Below, piece by piece: positions 1,737 through 55,892 of a DNA stretch of 64,000 nt. The DNA lies in contig JAKLIA010000001.1 of the NCBI GenBank assembly GCA_022709865.1, forward strand, positions 127,591 to 191,590, given 5' to 3'. Source of the DNA: Patescibacteria group bacterium. Lineage in GTDB: Bacteria > Patescibacteriota > Minisyncoccia > Portnoybacterales > GWB1-42-6. Position 1 is the first letter of the stretch; the number at the start of each line of letters is the position of its first letter. The notes under the pieces were generated by a model that was given only the letters and a program-made list of their open reading frames with translations, was not told the origin of the DNA and did not search any database. The translations under genes and the position numbers were made by a program.

Positions 1737-1764
1737 TTGACAAAACTTTTTGGTGTGATAATAT
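1737..1764 (+). promoter_or_regulatory. sigma70-like promoter for the str operon (TTGACA, 16-17 nt spacer, TGn-TAATAT)
   Basis: TTGACA at 1737-1742 and TAATAT at 1759-1764 preceded by TGTGA; about 160 nt upstream of rpsL; the leader carries a CCCCGG...CGGGGG hairpin. Confidence 0.5.
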
Positions 1765-1926
1765 CTAAATACACTTGTTAGAAAATCTAATTTCCCCGGG
1801 TTGCTGCGGGGGTAAAAATGGCTATAAACCGCTGTTTTTTTATTGCCTTGAGCGTTTTAATATTTTAGCATTTGAGCCTAAGATCCTTGTTTAAATGTTG
1901 TAATATTTAAATGTTTAAATGAAATT

Positions 1927-2337
1927 ATGCCAACTATTCACCAACTAATTAAGAGACCAAGAACTCAGTCAGTTCGCAAGCCTAAAGCGCCGGCGCTTTG
2001 GCGCGGTTTTAATGTTCTGAAAAATAAGCCGGCCCAATACCCGTCGCCTTTTAAGCGAGGGGTTTGCTTAAAGGTCACGACTACCACTCCTAAAAAGCCA
2101 AACTCAGCTTTGCGTAAAATCGCCAGAGTTCGCTTAACTAATGGTATGGAGGTCACCGCTTATATTCCGGGCGAGGGGCACAATTTGCAAGAGCACTCTG
2201 TAGTGGTGTTGCGCGGCGGGCGCGTGAAAGACTTGCCGGGCGTTCGCTATCATATTGTCCGTGGCGTCTTGGATACTTCCGGTGTTGAAGGCCGAAAGAA
2301 AGAGCGCAGCAAATACGGGGCTAAGCGGCCTAAATAA
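1927..2337 (+). CDS. rpsL: 30S ribosomal protein S12
   Basis: 136 aa; [11 protein letters not shown] start, KKPNSALRK and [13 protein letters not shown] motifs. Confidence 0.97.
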
Positions 2338-2355
2338 TATTATAAATAGAAGACT

Positions 2356-2820
2356 ATGCGAAGAAAACGAAATTACAAAAGAGACATTTTGCCTGATCCA
2401 AAGTTCCAGAATGTGGCGGTGGCAAAGTTCATTAATCGCTTAATGACCCGAGGCAAAAAATCAACTGCCCAGAGGGTTCTTTACGATGCTTTCGACATTA
2501 TTGCCAAACAACAGAAGGACCCGATGCAGATATTTGATGAAGCGATCAAAAATATTTCTCCGGCCTTGGAAGTTAAGTCCAAGCGCGTGGGCGGCGCCAA
2601 CTATCAGGTGCCTCGGGAAGTTCGAGGCGAGCGAAAGCTAACTTTAGCTTTTCGCTGGATAATTGAAGGTTCTCGGGCTAAGAAAGGCAAGCCGATGGCC
2701 GCTAAATTAGCTGAGGAGTTTCTAGCCGCAGCTAAGAACGAAGGCACAGCTATTAAGAAGAAACAAGATATGAATAGAATGGCCGAAGCTAACAAAGCCT
2801 TTGCCCATTTTAGCTGGTAA
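2356..2820 (+). CDS. rpsG: 30S ribosomal protein S7
   Basis: 154 aa; LPDPKF, VGGANYQVP and the KLAEE motifs typical of S7; follows rpsL. Confidence 0.95.
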   Translation: MRRKRNYKRDILPDPKFQNVAVAKFINRLMTRGKKSTAQRVLYDAFDIIAKQQKDPMQIFDEAIKNISPALEVKSKRVGGANYQVPREVRGERKLTLAFRWIIEGSRAKKGKPMAAKLAEEFLAAAKNEGTAIKKKQDMNRMAEANKAFAHFSW

Positions 2821-2865
2821 GCAATAGTTTCGTAATAAAGTTTGAATTAAAAAAATAAAACAAAA

Positions 2866-4956
2866 ATGCCAAGACAATATCCAATCGAAAAAATTCGCAA
2901 CCTCGGTATCATCGCTCATATTGATGCCGGCAAAACCACGGTTTCCGAGCGCGTGCTTTTTTATACAGGCAAAAAACATAAGGTCGGCGAGGTGCACGAA
3001 GGCGAAGCGGAAATGGATTGGATGGAACAAGAACGGGAGCGCGGCATTACAATTACTTCGGCGGCGACCACTTGTTTTTGGCGCGATTGCCAATTGAATC
3101 TAATTGATACTCCGGGCCATATTGACTTTACAGTTGAAGTGCAGCGGTCTTTGCGCGTGCTTGATGGCGCGGTAGTAGTTTTTGACGGCGTGGCAGGAGT
3201 GGAACCGCAATCTGAAACTGTGTGGCGGCAGGCAGACAAATATAATGTGCCGCGGATGTGCTTTATTAATAAAATGGACCGAACGGGCGCTGATTGGGAT
3301 AAAGACCTAAAATCTATCCATGAGCGCTTAACTCCCAGCGCCTTGCCGATAAACTTGCCGATCGGTGCGGAAGAGAACTTTTTGGGCGTGATAGACTTAT
3401 TTAAAATGAAGGCGATTAAGTTTGAAGGCGAACGGGGCGAAAAAATCGTGGAAGAGGAGATAGCCGCTGATAAATTAGAATGGGCAAAAAAATGGCGCCA
3501 AACTTTGGTGGAAAAGATCGTGGAGCAAGATGATGCGTTGATGCAAAAATATTTAGACGGCCAGGAAATCCCAGTGGCCGACTTAAAGAAGGCTTTGCGC
3601 CAAGCAACAATGGCAATTAAGATCATTCCGGTATTTTGCGGCACCGCCTTAAAAAATAAGGGCGTGCAATTGATGCTGGATGGCGTTTGCGACTTTTTGC
3701 CTTCGCCTTTGGATGTGCCTCCGACCGAGGGTTTTGATGCTAACGATGAAACAAAAAAAGTTACGCGCGAGACAAAAGACGACGCACCTTTTGCCGCCTT
3801 GGCTTTTAAAGTGGCCACCGATCCTTTCGTGGGCCAGCTGACTTTCTTTAGAATATATTCTGGCACCTTGAAAGCCGGCACTTATGTTTTGAATACAACT
3901 TCGGGGAACCAAGAGAGGATTAGCCGGATATTGCGCATGCATGCCAATCACCGCGAAGAAGTGAAAGAAATGTATGCGGGTGAAATTGCCGCGACCGTGG
4001 GCTTGAAAAGCACTGGCACCGGCGATACTCTTTGCGATGCTGACAACCCGATAATTTTGGAAAAAATGGAGTTCCCGGAGCCCGTTATTTCGGTGGCGAT
4101 CGAGCCAAAAACTAAAGCGGACCAGGAAAAAATGGGCGTGGCCTTGCATCGTTTGGCGGAAGAAGACCCAACTTTTAGAATTGAAGGCGACCAGAATACC
4201 GGCCAAACCATTATTCGAGGCATGGGTGAATTGCACTTGGAAATAATTGTGGACCGCATGATGCGGGAGTTTAAAGTTGACGCTAATGTTGGCCGCCCTC
4301 AAGTGGCTTATAAAGAAACCATCAAAGGCCAGGCGGAAGCGGAAGGGAAATATGTTAGGCAATCAGGCGGCAAAGGCCAATACGGCCATGTTTGGCTGCG
4401 GGTTGAGCCAAAAGAAAAAGGCACCGGTTTTGAGTTTGAAAACGATATTAAAGGCGGATTGATTCCTCAAGAGTTTATTCCAGCGATAGAAAAAGGCGTT
4501 AAAGAGGCGATTGATAAAGGTGTTTTAGCAGGGTATCCTTTGGTGGATGTAAAGGCGACTTTATACGATGGCTCATACCACGATGTTGACTCTTCGGAAA
4601 TTGCTTTTAAAATTGCTGGCGCTATGGCTTTGCAAGAAGCCTGCCGGCGCGCTAAATTGATCTTGCTTGAACCAATGATGAAATTGCAAACGATCACTCC
4701 GGAGCAATTCATGGGAGACGTAATTGGCGATATTAATTCCAAGCGCGGCCGGATAGACAACATGAGCGAGCGGGGTGAAGGAGTGGCGCGCGTAAAAGTG
4801 ATCGATGCCAAAGTGCCGTTGTCGGAAATGTTTGGTTATGCCACTTCCTTGCGCTCTATGACTCAGGGCCGGGCAAACTTTACCATGGAATTTGACCATT
4901 ACGAAGAAGTGCCCAACAATATTACTCAGCAAGTAGTGGAAGGAAGAAAGAAATAA
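2866..4956 (+). CDS. fusA: elongation factor G
   Basis: 696 aa; [10 protein letters not shown]1 motif, DTPGHIDF and NKMDR, full five-domain length. Confidence 0.97.
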
Positions 4957-47625: not shown

Positions 47626-47694
47626 AAGTTTGATTGATCGATTGACCGAGGGCTATTTTTGCGTTAAAATAGAGAGTGTTTTAGAGATAATTTT

Positions 47695-48924
47695 ATGAGC
47701 AAAAAAGCGTATTTTGACTATGGCGCAACTTCTCCGGTTGACCCGGCGGTTTTTGAGGCGATGAAGCCTTATTTTTGCGATAAGTTCGGCAATGCTTCTT
47801 CGCTCCATCAATTCGGCCAAGACGCGCAGCTGGGCGTGGTTTTGGCGCGCGAACAAGTAGCTAGGATCCTAGGTTGCCAGCAAAGCGAAGTGCTTTTTAA
47901 TAGCGGCGCAACAGAGGGCAATAACACCGTGATAAAGGGCTTTGGTTTCGATAAAAAATTGGCAGCGGCCGTTGGCGGCAAAGCCCATATTATTACCAGC
48001 GCCATTGAACACGAATGCGTTCTGGAATCGGTGAAGTTTTTAGACAAAGAGGGCTTTATCGAGGCGACTTTTTTGCCGGTTAACCGCGAGGGATTAGTGG
48101 AAGTGGCAGAAGTGGAAAAAGCAATTAAGCCCAATACGGTTTTAGTCTCCATTATGTATGCCAATAATGAAATCGGCACAGTCCAGCCAATCGCCCAGAT
48201 AGGGGAAATGCTTAAAAAAATAAATGCTTCTCGCGAGCAAAAAATATATTTTCATACTGATGCGGCCCAAGCCATAAATTATTTGCCTTGCGATGTTAAT
48301 GCTTTGGGCGTTGATTATCTAACCTTGTCTGCCCATAAGTTTTACGGGCCAAAAGGAATGGGCGCATTATTTGTCAGGTCTGGCGCGCTTTTTAATAAAC
48401 TTTTTCACGGTGGTGAGCAGGAGTTTAAAAAGCGGGCTGGCACTCATAATACTCCGGGCATTGTGGGGCTAGGCAAGGCAATTGAAATGGTTGGCCAAAA
48501 AACCAAAGATAATGAGCGGATCCAAAAACTGCGGGATAAATTAATAGACGGTGTGCTAAAAAATATTAAAGGCTCGGCCCTGAACGGCTCTCGGGAAAAC
48601 CGTTTGGCCAATAACGCTAATTTTCGTTTTGAAGGGGCAGAGGGAGAAGCAATTTTAATTGCTTTGGATTTGGAAGGCATTGCGGTTTCCACCGGTTCGG
48701 CTTGCGCTTCAAAGTCCCTGGAGCCCTCCCATGTTCTTTTAGCTTTGGGACTTGAACCGCTGGAAGCCCATAGCGCAATTCGCTTTTCCCTTGGCCGCTT
48801 CACCGAAGAAAAAGAAATTGATAGGGTTTTGGAAGTTTTGCCGGGCATTATCGAAAGGCTGCGCAGCATTACCGGCGGAACAGTTAATCGGAAAGATAAG
48901 TTATTAAAAGATCTGGGCTGCTAA
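47695..48924 (+). CDS. iscS: cysteine desulfurase (IscS/NifS, class V aminotransferase)
   Basis: 409 aa; PLP-lysine motif SAHKFYGPKGMGALFV and the C-terminal catalytic-Cys loop STGSACAS. Confidence 0.9.
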   Translation: MSKKAYFDYGATSPVDPAVFEAMKPYFCDKFGNASSLHQFGQDAQLGVVLAREQVARILGCQQSEVLFNSGATEGNNTVIKGFGFDKKLAAAVGGKAHIITSAIEHECVLESVKFLDKEGFIEATFLPVNREGLVEVAEVEKAIKPNTVLVSIMYANNEIGTVQPIAQIGEMLKKINASREQKIYFHTDAAQAINYLPCDVNALGVDYLTLSAHKFYGPKGMGALFVRSGALFNKLFHGGEQEFKKRAGTHNTPGIVGLGKAIEMVGQKTKDNERIQKLRDKLIDGVLKNIKGSALNGSRENRLANNANFRFEGAEGEAILIALDLEGIAVSTGSACASKSLEPSHVLLALGLEPLEAHSAIRFSLGRFTEEKEIDRVLEVLPGIIERLRSITGGTVNRKDKLLKDLGC

Positions 48925-48948
48925 GGATTTAAACTTTAAATTATCAAT

Positions 48949-49329
48949 ATGCTTTATTCAAAAGAAGTAATCAAACATTTTCAAAAGCCCGCCAATATGG
49001 GCAAAATGCCAAGCCCCGACGGCACGGGTGAAGTTGGCAACCCGGTTTGCGGCGACTTGATGAATATTTATATAAAAGTGGCTAAAGATAAAAAAGGGCA
49101 AGAAGTAATCAAAGATATCAAGTTTGAAACTTTGGGTTGTGTGGCGGCCATTGCCACTTCTTCCATGATAACCGAGATGGCTAAGGGCAAAACTTTAGAA
49201 GAAGCTTTAAAGATTAAATATGCCGACGTGGCCGAGGCTTTAGGCTCTTTGCCGCCGGTTAAAACTCACTGCGCGGACCTGGCGGTGCGGGCCTTGAAAG
49301 CGGCAATAGAAGACTATAGGAAAAAATAA
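48949..49329 (+). CDS. iscU: Fe-S cluster assembly scaffold (NifU/IscU N-terminal domain)
   Basis: 126 aa; [18 protein letters not shown] and HCADLA cysteine motifs. Confidence 0.88.
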
Positions 49330-51947: not shown

Positions 51948-51950
51948 AAT

Positions 51951-52694
51951 ATGTTCAAGAAGAAGGATTATAAAAGAATAATCGGTTTTTGGGTGATAGT
52001 CTTTTTAGTCGCTGGATTTTCCGGCGTATTTTTCAGCCGCACATTCCTGCCTTGGCTGACCAGCTTTGAGCCTTTTAATAAAGTGGAATGGCTTTGCAAT
52101 GTGAAAGATAACACCACTATCATTAATAAGACCGAAAAGCTTTATATTTCAGAAGGCACGGCGTATCAGGAAGCGATAAGCCGGGTGGGCAATACCGTGG
52201 TGGCTGTTCGTGTTGAACGGGCAGGAAGAGTATCGTTAGAGCATTCGGGCTTTATTTTGACCAATGACGGCTTGATTGCCACGGCCAATTTTTCTTTGCC
52301 TAAGGGCGCCAAGATCTTAGTGTCGCGCGATGGACAGGAATACGAAGCGCAATTAATAAAGCAAGACGCAACAGGCGATCTGGCCTTGGTAAAAATAGAA
52401 GCTAATAATTTGCCGGTGGCGGATTTTAGCGATAATAGCAATTTGAGCTTGGGCGAGCGAGTGGTGCTGGTTGGCGCGGCTAAAACCGGCGAATCTTTTG
52501 CCAAGTTTGTTGATCTGGGCATTGTCAAAACCTTATTGCCGAAATTATCATTCTCTTTCAGCGAAACATTTTTAGCTGATGGCGCGCCAATAGCCAATAT
52601 CGAAGGCAGAGTTTTGGGCTTGGCCTTAACCGAGAAAGATGGGAGCGTTAATTTGGTGGGCCAGGAAAAAATTAAAGAATTAATGAATAAATAA
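51951..52694 (+). CDS. membrane-anchored HtrA/DegP-like trypsin-fold protein lacking the catalytic His and Ser (predicted pseudoprotease)
   Basis: 247 aa; aligns by eye to the HtrA protease domain: GFILTNDGLIATANFSL (His of TNNHVV replaced), DLALVKIE (Asp retained), APIANIEGRVL (GNSGG Ser replaced); N-terminal TM. Confidence 0.55.
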   Translation: MFKKKDYKRIIGFWVIVFLVAGFSGVFFSRTFLPWLTSFEPFNKVEWLCNVKDNTTIINKTEKLYISEGTAYQEAISRVGNTVVAVRVERAGRVSLEHSGFILTNDGLIATANFSLPKGAKILVSRDGQEYEAQLIKQDATGDLALVKIEANNLPVADFSDNSNLSLGERVVLVGAAKTGESFAKFVDLGIVKTLLPKLSFSFSETFLADGAPIANIEGRVLGLALTEKDGSVNLVGQEKIKELMNK

Positions 52695-52698
52695 AAAA

Positions 52699-53151
52699 AT
52701 GATCGAAGGCGTTATAATAAAAAAACTAAAAAAGAACGAAGATAATCGCGGGTGGCTGGCAGAGATTTGGCGCGACGATGAGATCAATTTTAAATCGCAA
52801 ATGGGCTATGTTAGTTTGACCAAGCCGGGAATTATCCGCGGTCCGCACGAACATCAAAAGCAATCAGATTGTTTTATCTTTTTGGGGCCGGGTAATTTTA
52901 CTCTTCATTTATGGGATAGGCGGCCAGGTAGCGCTACGGAAGGGGAGTATTTTAAAGAATCCTTTGGCGAAGACAATCCTGCTTTAGTGATCGTGCCGCC
53001 GGGCGTGGTGCACGGTTATAAAAATGATTTTGATAAGGATGCTTGGTGCATTAATTTGCCCGATAGGCTATATAAAGGGAAGGATAAGCAAGAAGAGATA
53101 GACGAGATCCGGTGGGAAGAAAAAACTGATTCGCCTTATAAGATCGAATAA
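52699..53151 (+). CDS. rfbC: dTDP-4-dehydrorhamnose 3,5-epimerase-like cupin (RmlC family, short form)
   Basis: 150 aa; NEDNRGW, RGPHEHQ and GVVHGY motifs parallel the RmlC RGxHxQ / GxAHGF pattern. Confidence 0.6.
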   Translation: MIEGVIIKKLKKNEDNRGWLAEIWRDDEINFKSQMGYVSLTKPGIIRGPHEHQKQSDCFIFLGPGNFTLHLWDRRPGSATEGEYFKESFGEDNPALVIVPPGVVHGYKNDFDKDAWCINLPDRLYKGKDKQEEIDEIRWEEKTDSPYKIE

Positions 53152-53220: not shown

Positions 53221-53249
53221 TTGACATTTTTCGTGTTTATATATATTAT
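53221..53249 (+). promoter_or_regulatory. near-consensus sigma70 promoter (TTGACA, 17 nt spacer, TATTAT)
   Basis: Read directly; preceded by the GAGAGGCTCTC palindrome; drives the gene at 53347, which has a strong SD AGGAGGGG. Confidence 0.6.
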
Positions 53250-53346: not shown

Positions 53347-53799
53347 ATGAAGATCCAAGAAGAGCAGGTTAATGTTTATGTCCAGGCGGTTTGCCAGGGC
53401 GTGCCGGAAACATACGAAAGATATTTGGCTTCAAACAGCATAAGCGAAACCAACATTTTAAGATTTGTTAGTTTGGCTTATTGGTTGAGCCAAATAAAGA
53501 AAGAAGAAGACAGAAAAGAAGGTTTTGAGAAGTTCTTGTCAGCCTTGGCAAAAGACATTGAAGATGAAATTGAGCACGACGGGCCGGAGGTAATGAATCT
53601 TTGCGGTTTGGCCGGCGCTATTAAAGAAAACGAGCTTTTGATAATGGAATTATCAAAAGAGATCCCGGAAAGGCTGGAAAAAGGTAAAAAAGCCATCTCG
53701 GAAATCATAGGGCGTTTTCGGCACTATACGCCGGACATGCTTTTTGAAAAGATCGTTGGTTTTCACCCGGCAGCCGTTAATATTTTTCTTAAGCATTAA
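53347..53799 (+). CDS. hypothetical all-helical protein, flanked by its own promoter and terminator
   Basis: 150 aa; no family recognised; strong SD; consensus promoter upstream and a strong terminator downstream. Confidence 0.5.
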   Translation: MKIQEEQVNVYVQAVCQGVPETYERYLASNSISETNILRFVSLAYWLSQIKKEEDRKEGFEKFLSALAKDIEDEIEHDGPEVMNLCGLAGAIKENELLIMELSKEIPERLEKGKKAISEIIGRFRHYTPDMLFEKIVGFHPAAVNIFLKH

Positions 53800-53805
53800 T
53801 ACTTA

Positions 53806-53840
53806 CCCCGAAGAGCCGCTCTCTTCGGGGTTTTTTATTG
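53806..53840 (+). terminator. strong intrinsic terminator (CCCCGAAGAG-CCGCT-CTCTTCGGGG plus TTTTTT)
   Basis: 10-bp GC-rich stem and U-tract read directly. Confidence 0.8.
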
Positions 53841-53909: not shown

Positions 53910-54908
53910 ATGAAAATATTAATAACCGGCGGAGCTGGTTTTATGGGCTCTAATTTCATTAAATATATAATGGCCAAACACTCAGATTGGCAAGTGGTTA
54001 ATTTGGATAAATTAACTTATGCCGGGAACCTGGAAAACCTAGCGGAAGTTTCACAAAATAAAAATTACGCTTTTATAAAAGGGGATATAGCCAATAAGGA
54101 AGACGTGGCCAGAGCCATTGGCGAGGGCGTGGATAAAATTATCAATTACGCGGCTGAAACTCATGTGGACCGTTCGATTTTGGAGCCGGACGCTTTCATC
54201 AAAACCGATGTTTTTGGCACCTATACGCTGCTCGAAGCAGCGCGTAAGTATAATGTCGCACAATATATACAGATCTCAACTGACGAAGTCTTTGGCTCGA
54301 TAAAAGAAGGTTCTTTTGATGAACAAAGTCCGTTTGAGCCCAATAGCCCTTATTCGGCTTCCAAAGCCGGCGCTGACCACCTCTGCCGGGCTTATTTTAA
54401 AACTTATAATTTGCCGGTCATCATTACACATTCTTGCAATTTTTATGGGCCAAACCAATATCCGGAAAAATTAATTCCGCTTTTTGTAACTAATTTATTG
54501 GAAGGCAAAAAAGTTCCGGTCTATGGCCAAGGCCAGCAGATGCGGGAATGGATATTTACCCAGGACCACTGCAAAGCAGTGGAAGCAATAATGGAAAAAG
54601 GGCAGTTAGGGGAAGTTTATAATATTGGCACAGGCTATGAAAAAACTAATATGGAAATTACCAAGTTCATTTTGCAGGAGCTGGGCTGTGGCGAAGAGAT
54701 GATAGAATATGTAAAAGATCGGCCGGGACACGACTGGCGTTATGCTATAAACTCAAAAAAGTTGAGGGGATTGGGTTGGCAACCGGAATCTTCTTGGGAA
54801 GAAGGATTGCGTCGCACAATAAATTGGTATAAGGAAAATGAGGCTTGGTGGAAAAAAATAAAATCCGGCGAGTATCTGGAGTATTATAAAAAACAATACG
54901 GGAAATAA
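53910..54908 (+). CDS. rfbB: dTDP-glucose 4,6-dehydratase
   Basis: 332 aa; TGGAGFIGSN-like Rossmann motif (TGGAGFMGSN), YSASK catalytic motif, extended SDR. Confidence 0.88.
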   Translation: MKILITGGAGFMGSNFIKYIMAKHSDWQVVNLDKLTYAGNLENLAEVSQNKNYAFIKGDIANKEDVARAIGEGVDKIINYAAETHVDRSILEPDAFIKTDVFGTYTLLEAARKYNVAQYIQISTDEVFGSIKEGSFDEQSPFEPNSPYSASKAGADHLCRAYFKTYNLPVIITHSCNFYGPNQYPEKLIPLFVTNLLEGKKVPVYGQGQQMREWIFTQDHCKAVEAIMEKGQLGEVYNIGTGYEKTNMEITKFILQELGCGEEMIEYVKDRPGHDWRYAINSKKLRGLGWQPESSWEEGLRRTINWYKENEAWWKKIKSGEYLEYYKKQYGK

Positions 54909-55004: not shown

Positions 55005-55892
55005 ATGCAAAAAGTCTTAATTATCGGCGCTAAGGGAATGTTGGGCCAGGAATTGGTTAAGGTTTTTTCTGTGCCTTCCGCCCAAGATGAAAAAAAATAC
55101 GAAGTGGTGGCGTGGGACAAGGAAGAGATAAATATTACTGATGAAGCGCAGGTAAAAAATAAAATTAGAGAGCTGGCGCCGCAGATCATTATTAATGCGG
55201 CTGCTTATAACTCAGCCGATAAATGCGAGGAGCCGGAGTATTTTGAGGTAGCCAAAAAAATAAACGGCTTGGCTCCGGGATATTTAGCCCAGGTGGCTAA
55301 GAGTCTGGGCGCGATTTTTACGCATTATAGCACTGATTATATTTTTGACGGTAAAAATAAAGATGGATATAACGAAAGCGCATTTCCTTCCCCTATTTCC
55401 AAATACGGCGAGTCAAAATTATTAGGCGAAAAACAAGTGGCGGCTGTTGGTGGCCAATATTATATTATTCGTTTACAGCGGCTTTTTGGTTCGCCAGCCA
55501 AGTCAATTGAGGCTAAAAAAAGTTTTTTTGATGTGATGCTTAAGCTGTCGCAAGAAAAAAAAGAATTAGGGGCTGTTGATGAAGAGCTGGCTAATTTTAC
55601 TTACGCGCCGGACTTAGCTCTACAGACTAAATATTTAATAGAAAAAAAATTGCCAACTGGAATATATCATATAACCAATGAGGGTTCGCCGGCTACTTGG
55701 TTTGGCGCGGCCGAAGCTTTGTTCAAAGTGGCGGGTGTTGGCGGCGTAAAATTGATTCCGTTGGCTTCAAGCCTTTTTCCCCGGCCAGCCAAACGGCCAA
55801 AATACTCCGTTTTGTTGAACACCAAATTGCCGCCTTTGCGGCCTTGGAACGAAGCGTTGAAAGAGTTTTTGTCGGAAAATAAGCGGTCTTGA
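55005..55892 (+). CDS. rfbD: dTDP-4-dehydrorhamnose reductase
   Basis: 295 aa; N-terminal IIGAKGMLGQEL Rossmann motif, YSTDYIFDG and YGESK motifs of RmlD. Confidence 0.75.
   Translation: MQKVLIIGAKGMLGQELVKVFSVPSAQDEKKYEVVAWDKEEINITDEAQVKNKIRELAPQIIINAAAYNSADKCEEPEYFEVAKKINGLAPGYLAQVAKSLGAIFTHYSTDYIFDGKNKDGYNESAFPSPISKYGESKLLGEKQVAAVGGQYYIIRLQRLFGSPAKSIEAKKSFFDVMLKLSQEKKELGAVDEELANFTYAPDLALQTKYLIEKKLPTGIYHITNEGSPATWFGAAEALFKVAGVGGVKLIPLASSLFPRPAKRPKYSVLLNTKLPPLRPWNEALKEFLSENKRS

Follow-up and report, generated by a model that had tools for sequence, protein, structure and literature searches.

A membrane-anchored, catalytically degenerate HtrA-like protein encoded next to clpB in Patescibacteria

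Introduction

What could be the function of an HtrA-type protease fold that has lost its catalytic residues, and is that function linked to the ClpB encoded beside it? The question is raised by a gene in a 64,000-nucleotide stretch of the genome of a Patescibacteria group bacterium (hereafter the window, with positions numbered from its first nucleotide). A sequence-only reading of the window had described the gene product as a catalytically dead, membrane-anchored protein with an HtrA-like trypsin fold, encoded 4 nt after clpB, and had suggested that it could act as a chaperone or substrate-binding module paired with ClpB. The two genes are located as follows.

51951-52694, + strand: gene for a PDZ-less pseudoprotease with the S1C fold, 247 amino acids, an open reading frame (ORF) from ATG to TAA
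49338-51947, + strand: clpB, 869 amino acids (TIGR03346 and Pfam domains)

The results presented here establish the fold, the loss of the catalytic site and the purifying selection that maintains the gene. The protein, designated pseudo-HtrA, is probably a membrane-tethered, non-catalytic HtrA pseudoprotease that functions in envelope protein quality control and is co-expressed with clpB.

Results

Homology and predicted fold

Pseudo-HtrA has the chymotrypsin-like, two-barrel fold of the S1C (HtrA/DegP) proteases. Residues 99-224 match Pfam Trypsin_2 with E=2e-14 and 55 bits, compared with a gathering score of 27.6, and the best NCBIfam match is to the DegP/HtrA model TIGR02037 (E=3.6e-15), at 55.8 bits versus an equivalog cutoff of 416; the scores with all of the NCBIfam HtrA, DegP, DegQ, DegS, MamO and MamE models are far below their cutoffs. 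HMMER matches to sequences in the PDB are headed by the DegP-like 22kg (E=1.2e-13), with DegP-like, HhoA, HtrA1 and DegS chains at E values of 1e-13 to 1e-5. The sequence-only reading had proposed a profile comparison and a structure comparison as checks, and both are consistent with its assignment of the fold. Alignment of the pseudo-HtrA family to 17 canonical HtrAs by hhalign extends over 215 columns with a probability of 99.9% and E=7e-36. An AlphaFold model based on 43 sequences, with a mean predicted local distance difference test (pLDDT) score of 86.6, has as its best Foldseek matches in the PDB the protease domains of HtrA1, HtrA3, HhoA, Helicobacter pylori HtrA and DegS, with E values of ~1e-14 to 1e-12, template modelling scores normalized to the target, TM(target), of 0.75-0.83 and root-mean-square deviations of 2.4-3 Å. 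For the HtrA1 protease domain, these values are E=1e-14, TM(target) 0.79-0.83 and 2.4 Å.

Loss of the catalytic site

The positions equivalent to the His-Asp-Ser (HDS) triad were assigned from four independent alignments that agree, namely a pairwise HMMER alignment, MAFFT alignments of 28 and of 82 sequences, and hhalign. None of the four places an intact triad in pseudo-HtrA.

52290-52292, + strand: codon F114, position of the catalytic His (HMMER, MAFFT, hhalign)
52377-52379, + strand: codon D143, position of the catalytic Asp (HMMER, MAFFT, hhalign; family alignment)
52578-52580, + strand: codon D210, position of the catalytic Ser, with LADGAP opposite GNSGGP (HMMER, MAFFT, hhalign)

The His is replaced by Phe where ATANF(114)SL aligns with TNxH-VV, the Asp is retained where GD(143)LALVKI aligns with xD-IAxxKI, and the Ser is replaced by Asp where LAD(210)GAPIANIEGRVLGL aligns with GNS-GGPLxNxxGxVVGI, giving F114/D143/D210 at the triad positions. 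The TNxHV motif and the GNSGGPL oxyanion-hole/L1 motif are both absent, with ATANFS and LADGAPI in their places, and of GNSGGPL just G211 and P213 remain. The first two alignment blocks of the sequence-only reading, around F114 and D143, are the same as ours. Its third block, built on NIEGRVL, was 8 residues out of register: HMMER, both MAFFT alignments and hhalign pair LADGAPIANIEGRVLGL with GNSGGPLLxxxGxVVGI, and NIEGRVL forms the strand that follows the oxyanion loop. As E218 lies in this strand, the replacement of Ser by Glu that it had reported is incorrect, and the residue equivalent to the Ser is D210. The single His in the protein, H98, is adjacent to S99. With the oxyanion motif lost and the triad absent across the family described below, the protein can be regarded as catalytically dead, presumably unable to cleave peptide bonds by a serine-protease mechanism.

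Domain anatomy and membrane topology

Residues 1-9: K/R-rich N-terminal tail, predicted to be cytoplasmic; 5 of the 9 residues are K or R
51978-52040, + strand: transmembrane anchor, residues ~10-30, with a glycine-rich VAGFSGVFF (hydropathy, AlphaFold helix)
52113-52136, + strand: juxtamembrane motif TTIINKTE, residues 55-62 (alignments)
52197-52688, + strand: degenerate chymotrypsin-fold domain, residues 83-246 (DSSP of the model, Foldseek, alignment gaps)

The membrane anchor that had been proposed is supported by a hydropathy maximum at residues 10-28 (mean Kyte-Doolittle value 2.47), by the positively charged tail that precedes it and by a helix at residues 7-36 in the AlphaFold model. 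Based on the positive-inside rule, the protein is predicted to have an N-in topology, with ~9 residues in the cytoplasm and the HtrA-like domain on the outer side. This domain consists, by DSSP analysis of the model, of two beta-barrels and a C-terminal helix, and the protein ends one residue past that helix. S1C HtrAs usually, although not universally, have at least one C-terminal PDZ domain; in pseudo-HtrA, no match to a Pfam PDZ domain was found at E<=10. Named according to the established HtrA nomenclature, loop LA, which joins beta1 to beta2, is deleted, leaving a gap of ~11-25 residues relative to canonical HtrAs of the Candidate Phyla Radiation (CPR), as is an insert of ~17 residues at the L3 position, and loops L1 and L2 are shortened. 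In HtrAs, LA and L3 carry the inter-protomer and PDZ signals. S1C HtrAs have a trimer as their basic unit of oligomerization; the model of pseudo-HtrA is of a monomer.

P34 and TTIINKTE are the most conserved elements outside the core, and P34 and the Gly at alignment positions 21, 24 and 25 (A21, S24 and G25 in the window protein) are each present in at least 83% of the 135 family representatives described below. TTIINKTE is also the stretch best shared with the PDZ-bearing dead HtrAs considered below, and residues 54-60 in this region of the model are of low confidence (pLDDT<50). We considered TTIINKTE as a hallmark specific to dead forms and dropped this interpretation, as the motif was one of the search patterns in the species scan, resulting in ascertainment bias, and VVVNKTEQ is present in P0188, a canonical HtrA with the HDS triad. 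The word-seeded search was likewise seeded on shared words; even so, strong conservation of the segment is seen in the profile search, which is free of this bias.

A family of short dead HtrAs under purifying selection

A word-seeded search recovered ~33 proteins from Patescibacteria, Parcubacteria and Portnoybacteria, 218-251 amino acids in length and 31-91% identical, that have Trypsin_2 as their only domain and are named in their sources as 'S1C family serine protease', 'Protease do' or 'serine protease'. When 1.84 billion cluster representatives (clusters at 50% identity) were searched exhaustively with a profile, 195 clusters matched at E<=1e-30, and 135 of the top 150 representatives are 190-300 amino acids long. 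In this phylum, HtrA pseudoproteases are therefore not rare, contrary to what the sequence-only reading had stated for bacteria. Two very large proteins with multiple Trypsin_2 domains among the profile matches, P0131 and P0141, look like multi-domain proteases and were not accepted as family members. Some database entries of 281-320 amino acids (P0002, located at L010:5721-6683, P0014 and P0026) have N-terminal extensions towards clpB that cannot be aligned and are probably the result of mis-called start codons. No publications on this pseudo-HtrA family, on DUF5656 or on loss of the HtrA catalytic site in Patescibacteria or CPR bacteria were found in a literature search of incomplete coverage.

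Column counts were made for the 135 short-form representatives together with the window protein (136 sequences). His is not present at the His column in any of the 136, where S, D, E and N predominate; the Asp column has N in 78, G in 36 and D in 11 sequences; and the Ser column is scattered (S in 24, N in 21, T in 15, and others). The HDS combination does not occur. The sequence-only reading was thus correct that the Asp is kept in the window protein, D143, but this is not the case for most relatives, which have Asn or Gly. Every active-site position that is at least 85% conserved in canonical HtrAs (TN.HVV, QTDAAIN.GNSGG) has been lost, and the residues whose conservation is common to the family and to canonical HtrAs are structural glycines and core hydrophobics, with D106, G107, G168, G190, G211, G219 and G223 among the shared positions. 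The position of H98 is occupied by Gly in 85% of the family.

The gene is under purifying selection and is not decaying. Relative to a 91%-identical homologue (L090), the ratio of nonsynonymous to synonymous substitution rates (dN/dS) is 0.11 at dS=0.42, and the corresponding values are 0.10 for the adjacent rmlC-like gene and 0.005 for the C-terminus of ClpB. L090 was used for this calculation because dS was saturated (1.7-2.2) in comparisons with L010-L013, L001 and L004. A dN/dS of 0.11 identifies a selected pseudoenzyme rather than a gene in decay. That every catalytic motif and the PDZ domain have gone might be cited in favour of a pseudogene or an annotation artefact, but this possibility is refuted by the dN/dS value, the intact ORF, the existence of >130 full-length, divergent clusters of short forms and the confidently predicted fold, and can be set aside with near certainty.

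PDZ-bearing dead HtrAs and the origin of the short form

A species scan, with one genome per GTDB species, identified 80 loci that were classified against a canonical reference; 36 encode HtrAs with an HDS triad and 44 encode degenerate triads, of which 23 are short forms and 21 are long forms (372-439 amino acids, with PDZ). In the long forms, ATYRxA, NLAFLK and xYVGGP are present in place of the triad motifs. In a neighbour-joining tree of the protease domain, all 45 dead forms are together, to the exclusion of canonical members, and among them the 24 short forms constitute a subclade, although the tree is crude and long-branch attraction may have inflated the grouping. This tree tentatively suggests that the short form arose from a duplication of an HtrA gene early in the Patescibacteria. 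The window protein has the traits of the dead-HtrA clade, namely the glycine-rich transmembrane helix, P34, a TTIINKTE-like segment, a degenerate triad and the position in the tree. Long dead HtrAs (P0034, P0040, L029, L038) resemble it in their helix, P34, TTIINKTE and degenerate triad, but differ in having a PDZ domain, an insert of L3 length and, directly 5' in all 21 cases, a gene encoding a multi-pass membrane protein of the DUF5656 family (for example L008:291-911, L009:3159-3896 and those in L038, L045 and L073). A DUF5656 gene is also directly 5' of one short form (L036); the window protein lacks both a PDZ domain and a DUF5656 neighbour. The pairing of DUF5656 with long dead HtrAs is more strictly conserved than the adjacency to clpB. 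Two half-degenerate, PDZ-bearing proteins, P0127 (397 amino acids) and P0160 (409 amino acids), have Gln or Glu in place of the His and retain the NSGGP Ser motif, and may be intermediates in the decay of the triad.

Gene neighbourhoods across relatives

Contexts were tabulated by tblastn across the 44 dead-HtrA species loci. The order iscS-nifU-clpB-pseudoHtrA recurs in relatives at 54-72% identity, in L001, L004, L011, L012 and L015. A clpB gene is adjacent in 17 of the 44 loci, in 12 directly 5' and in 5 with DUF5656 between, so the pairing that the sequence-only reading had asked to be surveyed in CPR genomes does recur but is not universal. Among the 24 short forms, 12 have clpB directly 5', with ClpB identities as low as 60%, and in half of these 12 loci there is an active HtrA gene just 5' of clpB. 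Overall, an active HtrA is encoded on the same strand within ~4.1 kb 5' in 18 of the 44 loci, and also in L009. A PrsA-like, PPIC-type peptidyl-prolyl isomerase (PPIase) heads many of these clusters, and a one-strand cluster of PrsA-like PPIase, active HtrA, sometimes ClpB, DUF5656 and dead HtrA recurs (L038, L045, L073, L009), with the fullest arrangement, PPIase, HtrA, ClpB, DUF5656 and dead HtrA, in L038, L045 and L073.

Several features of individual loci were also recorded. In L004 (Parcubacteria GW2011_GWA2_43_9b, LCHB01000009.1), positions 1737-3263 encode a NifU homologue of 508 amino acids with an intein (Intein_splicing and LAGLIDADG), and in L004:3361-5860 ClpB is predicted as two overlapping ORFs of 359 and 492 amino acids, suggestive of either a split gene or a frameshift. 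The 196 nt upstream of a 40% homologue (L007) were evaluated as encoding a ClpB C-terminus and this was ruled out. The taxon labels 'uncultured Candidatus Saccharibacteria' and 'uncultured Bdellovibrionales', attached to metagenome-assembled genomes from binchicken co-assemblies (L011, L013-L015, L032, L044 and others), look unreliable given the Parcubacteria-type synteny and were not used.

The gene array in the window

47642-47670: promoter-like site, 5' of the iscS-like gene
47695-48924, + strand: iscS-like gene (Pfam Aminotran_5)
48949-49329, + strand: nifU-like gene (Pfam NifU_N)
47695-49329, + strand: the iscS-like and nifU-like pair, at the head of a tightly packed, co-directional array
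52699-53151, + strand: RmlC-like cupin, dTDP-4-dehydrorhamnose 3,5-epimerase family (Pfam dTDP_sugar_isom, E=6.6e-12)
53347-53799, + strand: ORF of 150 amino acids between the rmlC-like and rmlB-like genes, no Pfam match
53805-53831, + strand: terminator-like hairpin, an 11-bp stem followed by a T-run, the first strong one 3' of the array
53910-54908, + strand: rmlB-like gene (Pfam)
55005-55892, + strand: rmlD-like gene (Pfam)

The upstream gene encodes a true ClpB, with a TIGR03346 score of 1277 bits versus a cutoff of 1232.1 and with Clp_N, two AAA modules (Pfam AAA and AAA_2), AAA_lid_9 and ClpB_D2-small domains, and the placement of pseudo-HtrA 3' of clpB is therefore correct. The gap between the clpB stop codon and the pseudo-HtrA ATG is 3 nt (aat, 51948-51950), one fewer than had been reported, and the rmlC-like gene starts 4 nt 3' of the pseudo-HtrA stop codon. 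The iscS-nifU-clpB-pseudoHtrA-rmlC-like genes are on one strand, separated by 24, 8, 3 and 4 nt. A strong terminator was not found in the array before position 53805. This organization makes it likely that pseudo-HtrA is co-transcribed with clpB in an iscS-nifU-clpB-pseudoHtrA-rmlC array. There is also a near-consensus promoter-like site (11/12) at 53221-53249, 5' of the 150-amino acid ORF, and the hairpin at 53805-53831, 3' of that ORF, is the strongest terminator-like one in the region.

Discussion

A probable non-catalytic role in envelope protein quality control

In the reading that we favour, pseudo-HtrA, which has lost the triad, the PDZ domain, the oxyanion loop with GNSGGPL, and loops LA and L3, may descend from an ancestral HtrA duplicate, and the retained beta-barrel core may provide a binding or oligomerization scaffold for the quality control of exported or membrane proteins. 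Pseudo-HtrA would then work on the outer side of the membrane, non-catalytically, and the tie to ClpB would be co-expression or synteny inherited within a proteostasis neighbourhood, with no physical contact expected because the domain and ClpB are predicted to be on opposite sides of the membrane. The best-placed version of such a role, which we put forward tentatively, is as a partner or modulator of the active HtrA of the genome, comparable to the relationship of MamO to MamE. This version is favoured by the apparent origin through duplication, the frequent co-location with an active HtrA and the precedents of MamO and DEG7.

Several points weigh against a role of this kind, the first being that the function is deduced from the fold, the pattern of losses and gene order, and that the tree which suggests a duplication carries the caveat given above. 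The deletion of LA and L3 argues against classical HtrA-type allostery. A tblastn search of the window for an active HtrA, DUF5656 and a PrsA-like PPIase matched pseudo-HtrA alone, and the same holds for the +/-10 kb surveyed in L011 and L012, the species loci nearest to the window, where no canonical HtrA, PrsA-like PPIase or DUF5656 is encoded, so that for the lineage of the window the partner is hypothetical. The losses of PDZ, LA and L3, together with the lack of a visible partner in the window, weaken the partner version and the alternative of a stand-alone holdase alike. No CIRCE/HrcA operator (TTAGCACTC-N9-GAGTGCTAA, with up to 3 mismatches) is present in the window, and there is therefore no direct evidence of heat-shock regulation. 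With respect to gene order, eight short-form loci (L016-L018, L020-L023 and L028) have no clpB despite adequate upstream sequence; in one of these, from Portnoybacteria (L023:6903-9810), the 5' genes encode a PilC-like T2SSF protein, a pilin with an N-methylation motif and an A24 prepilin peptidase. An rml gene lies 2-800 nt 3' in 13-14 of 24 short-form loci, at least as frequently as clpB lies 5', and in compact CPR genomes adjacency may be inherited synteny.

Alternative explanations

That pseudo-HtrA is a stand-alone extracytoplasmic holdase, with a dead cleft that binds unfolded exported polypeptides without a partner protease, seems unlikely but has several observations in its favour. DegP S210A is an analogue of such a protein. 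The core that forms the cleft has been kept, along with G211, P213, G219 and G223, the window has no active HtrA, and B. subtilis under secretion stress gains fitness from an HtrA without proteolytic activity (PMC10715036). The elements for substrate capture, PDZ, L3 and L2, have however been deleted or shortened, and the Ser position and the positions that line the cleft are highly variable within the family, unlike a conserved peptide-binding site.

A broader proposal, which we regard as rather doubtful, is that the dead HtrAs are the outward part of a Patescibacteria-specific envelope-stress module, mostly with DUF5656, that would capture or sense misfolded exports and then either activate the adjacent HtrA/PrsA system or relay the signal across the membrane to the cytoplasmic ClpB response; the PDZ-less, loop-less window form would be a minimised adaptor.

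It is improbable that pseudo-HtrA is an envelope assembly factor for a rhamnose-containing wall polymer or for pilus biogenesis, with the fold as a structural or docking module. Consistent with this proposal are the rml gene (rmlB, rmlC or rmlD) that lies 3' of the window gene and of more than half of the short forms in the species loci, and the pil-type genes in L023, where rmlB and rmlD lie 3' of the short dead HtrA. The long forms, however, adjoin DUF5656, PrsA-like PPIase, HtrA and ClpB, and for just one long form (L029) are rml genes nearby, ~6 kb 3'. There is no domain or motif tied to glycan chemistry, and the closeness of genes counts for little in the compact, co-directional arrays of CPR bacteria.

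The original suggestion, that the protein binds substrates or acts as a chaperone in physical association with ClpB, is very hard to reconcile with the predicted topology. ClpB is a cytosolic disaggregase, and pseudo-HtrA is predicted to expose ~9 residues to the cytoplasm with its domain outside. The 3-nt gap and the recurrence of clpB directly 5' in half of the short-form loci do fit such a pairing, but the adjacency is absent from a third of these loci and DUF5656 intervenes in long-form loci, and so the link is at most one of gene order or co-expression.

Equally remote is an active peptidase with a non-canonical nucleophile or dyad. Ser is present at the nucleophile column in 24 of the 136 sequences and the window protein has the H98-S99 pair, but the general-base column lacks His in every family member, nor is an alternative polar residue conserved. 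Most members have Gly in place of H98, and the residues that are conserved (D106, G107, G168, G190, G211, G219, G223) are structural and common to canonical HtrAs.

Comparison with known systems

The family to which the window protein belongs is a phylum-wide, minimised, membrane-anchored HtrA pseudoprotease that is currently annotated as an active protease. Patescibacteria genomes are among the smallest in bacteria, and the retention of a protease gene without catalysis points to an important non-enzymatic job in the envelope. The active-protease names in the databases credit these organisms with more proteolytic capacity than they have. The recurrent cluster of PrsA-like PPIase, HtrA, ClpB, DUF5656 and dead HtrA provides a testable entry to exported-protein folding in CPR bacteria and gives the DUF5656 family its first functional context.

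Canonical HtrA, DegP and DegS proteins, including the anchored HtrA of monoderms, have the same fold as the window protein, an N-terminal anchor and an extracytoplasmic site of action, and relatives of the window protein share with them a protein-folding gene neighbourhood (PrsA-like PPIase, ClpB). The window protein differs in having no catalytic His or Ser, no GNSGGPL and no PDZ, with LA and the ~17-residue L3 insert deleted. With triad, oxyanion motif, PDZ and regulatory loops all missing, it is outside the canonical S1C proteases.

Proteolytically inactive Degs of plants are triad-mutated HtrA paralogues that were kept after duplication, some without PDZ (PMC3473262, PMC3194040), and the second protease domain of DEG7, which is degenerate, is specialised for trimerisation (PMC3194040). 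These proteins differ in being eukaryotic and of independent origin, and the dead domain of DEG7 is fused to an active one whereas that of the window is a separate membrane-anchored protein, but oligomerization by DEG7 is a plausible analogue of a scaffold function.

A bacterial precedent is MamO, which promotes proteolysis by MamE without the need for its own triad (PMC4794232). Like the window protein, MamO has a bacterial HtrA fold with a degenerate triad. It has been retained for non-catalytic roles and is encoded beside an active paralogue, MamE, next to which it arose, as relatives of the window protein are in the 18 loci with an active HtrA in the same cluster. The two differ in taxon and process, MamO being a protein of biomineralisation, and the NCBIfam MamO match of the window protein is generic (E=3.7e-7, 28.9 bits versus a cutoff of 800). 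The transition-metal site of MamO is a surface di-histidine (H148/H263); a MamO-like binding of metals by the window protein was rejected, as its sole His, H98, is not conserved. The concept of an HtrA pseudoprotease is already established, and what is new is how large the family is, that minimal genomes have kept it, and the conserved DUF5656/HtrA/PrsA/ClpB cluster. The family would be the second large bacterial case, after MamO, in which the HtrA scaffold has been repurposed.

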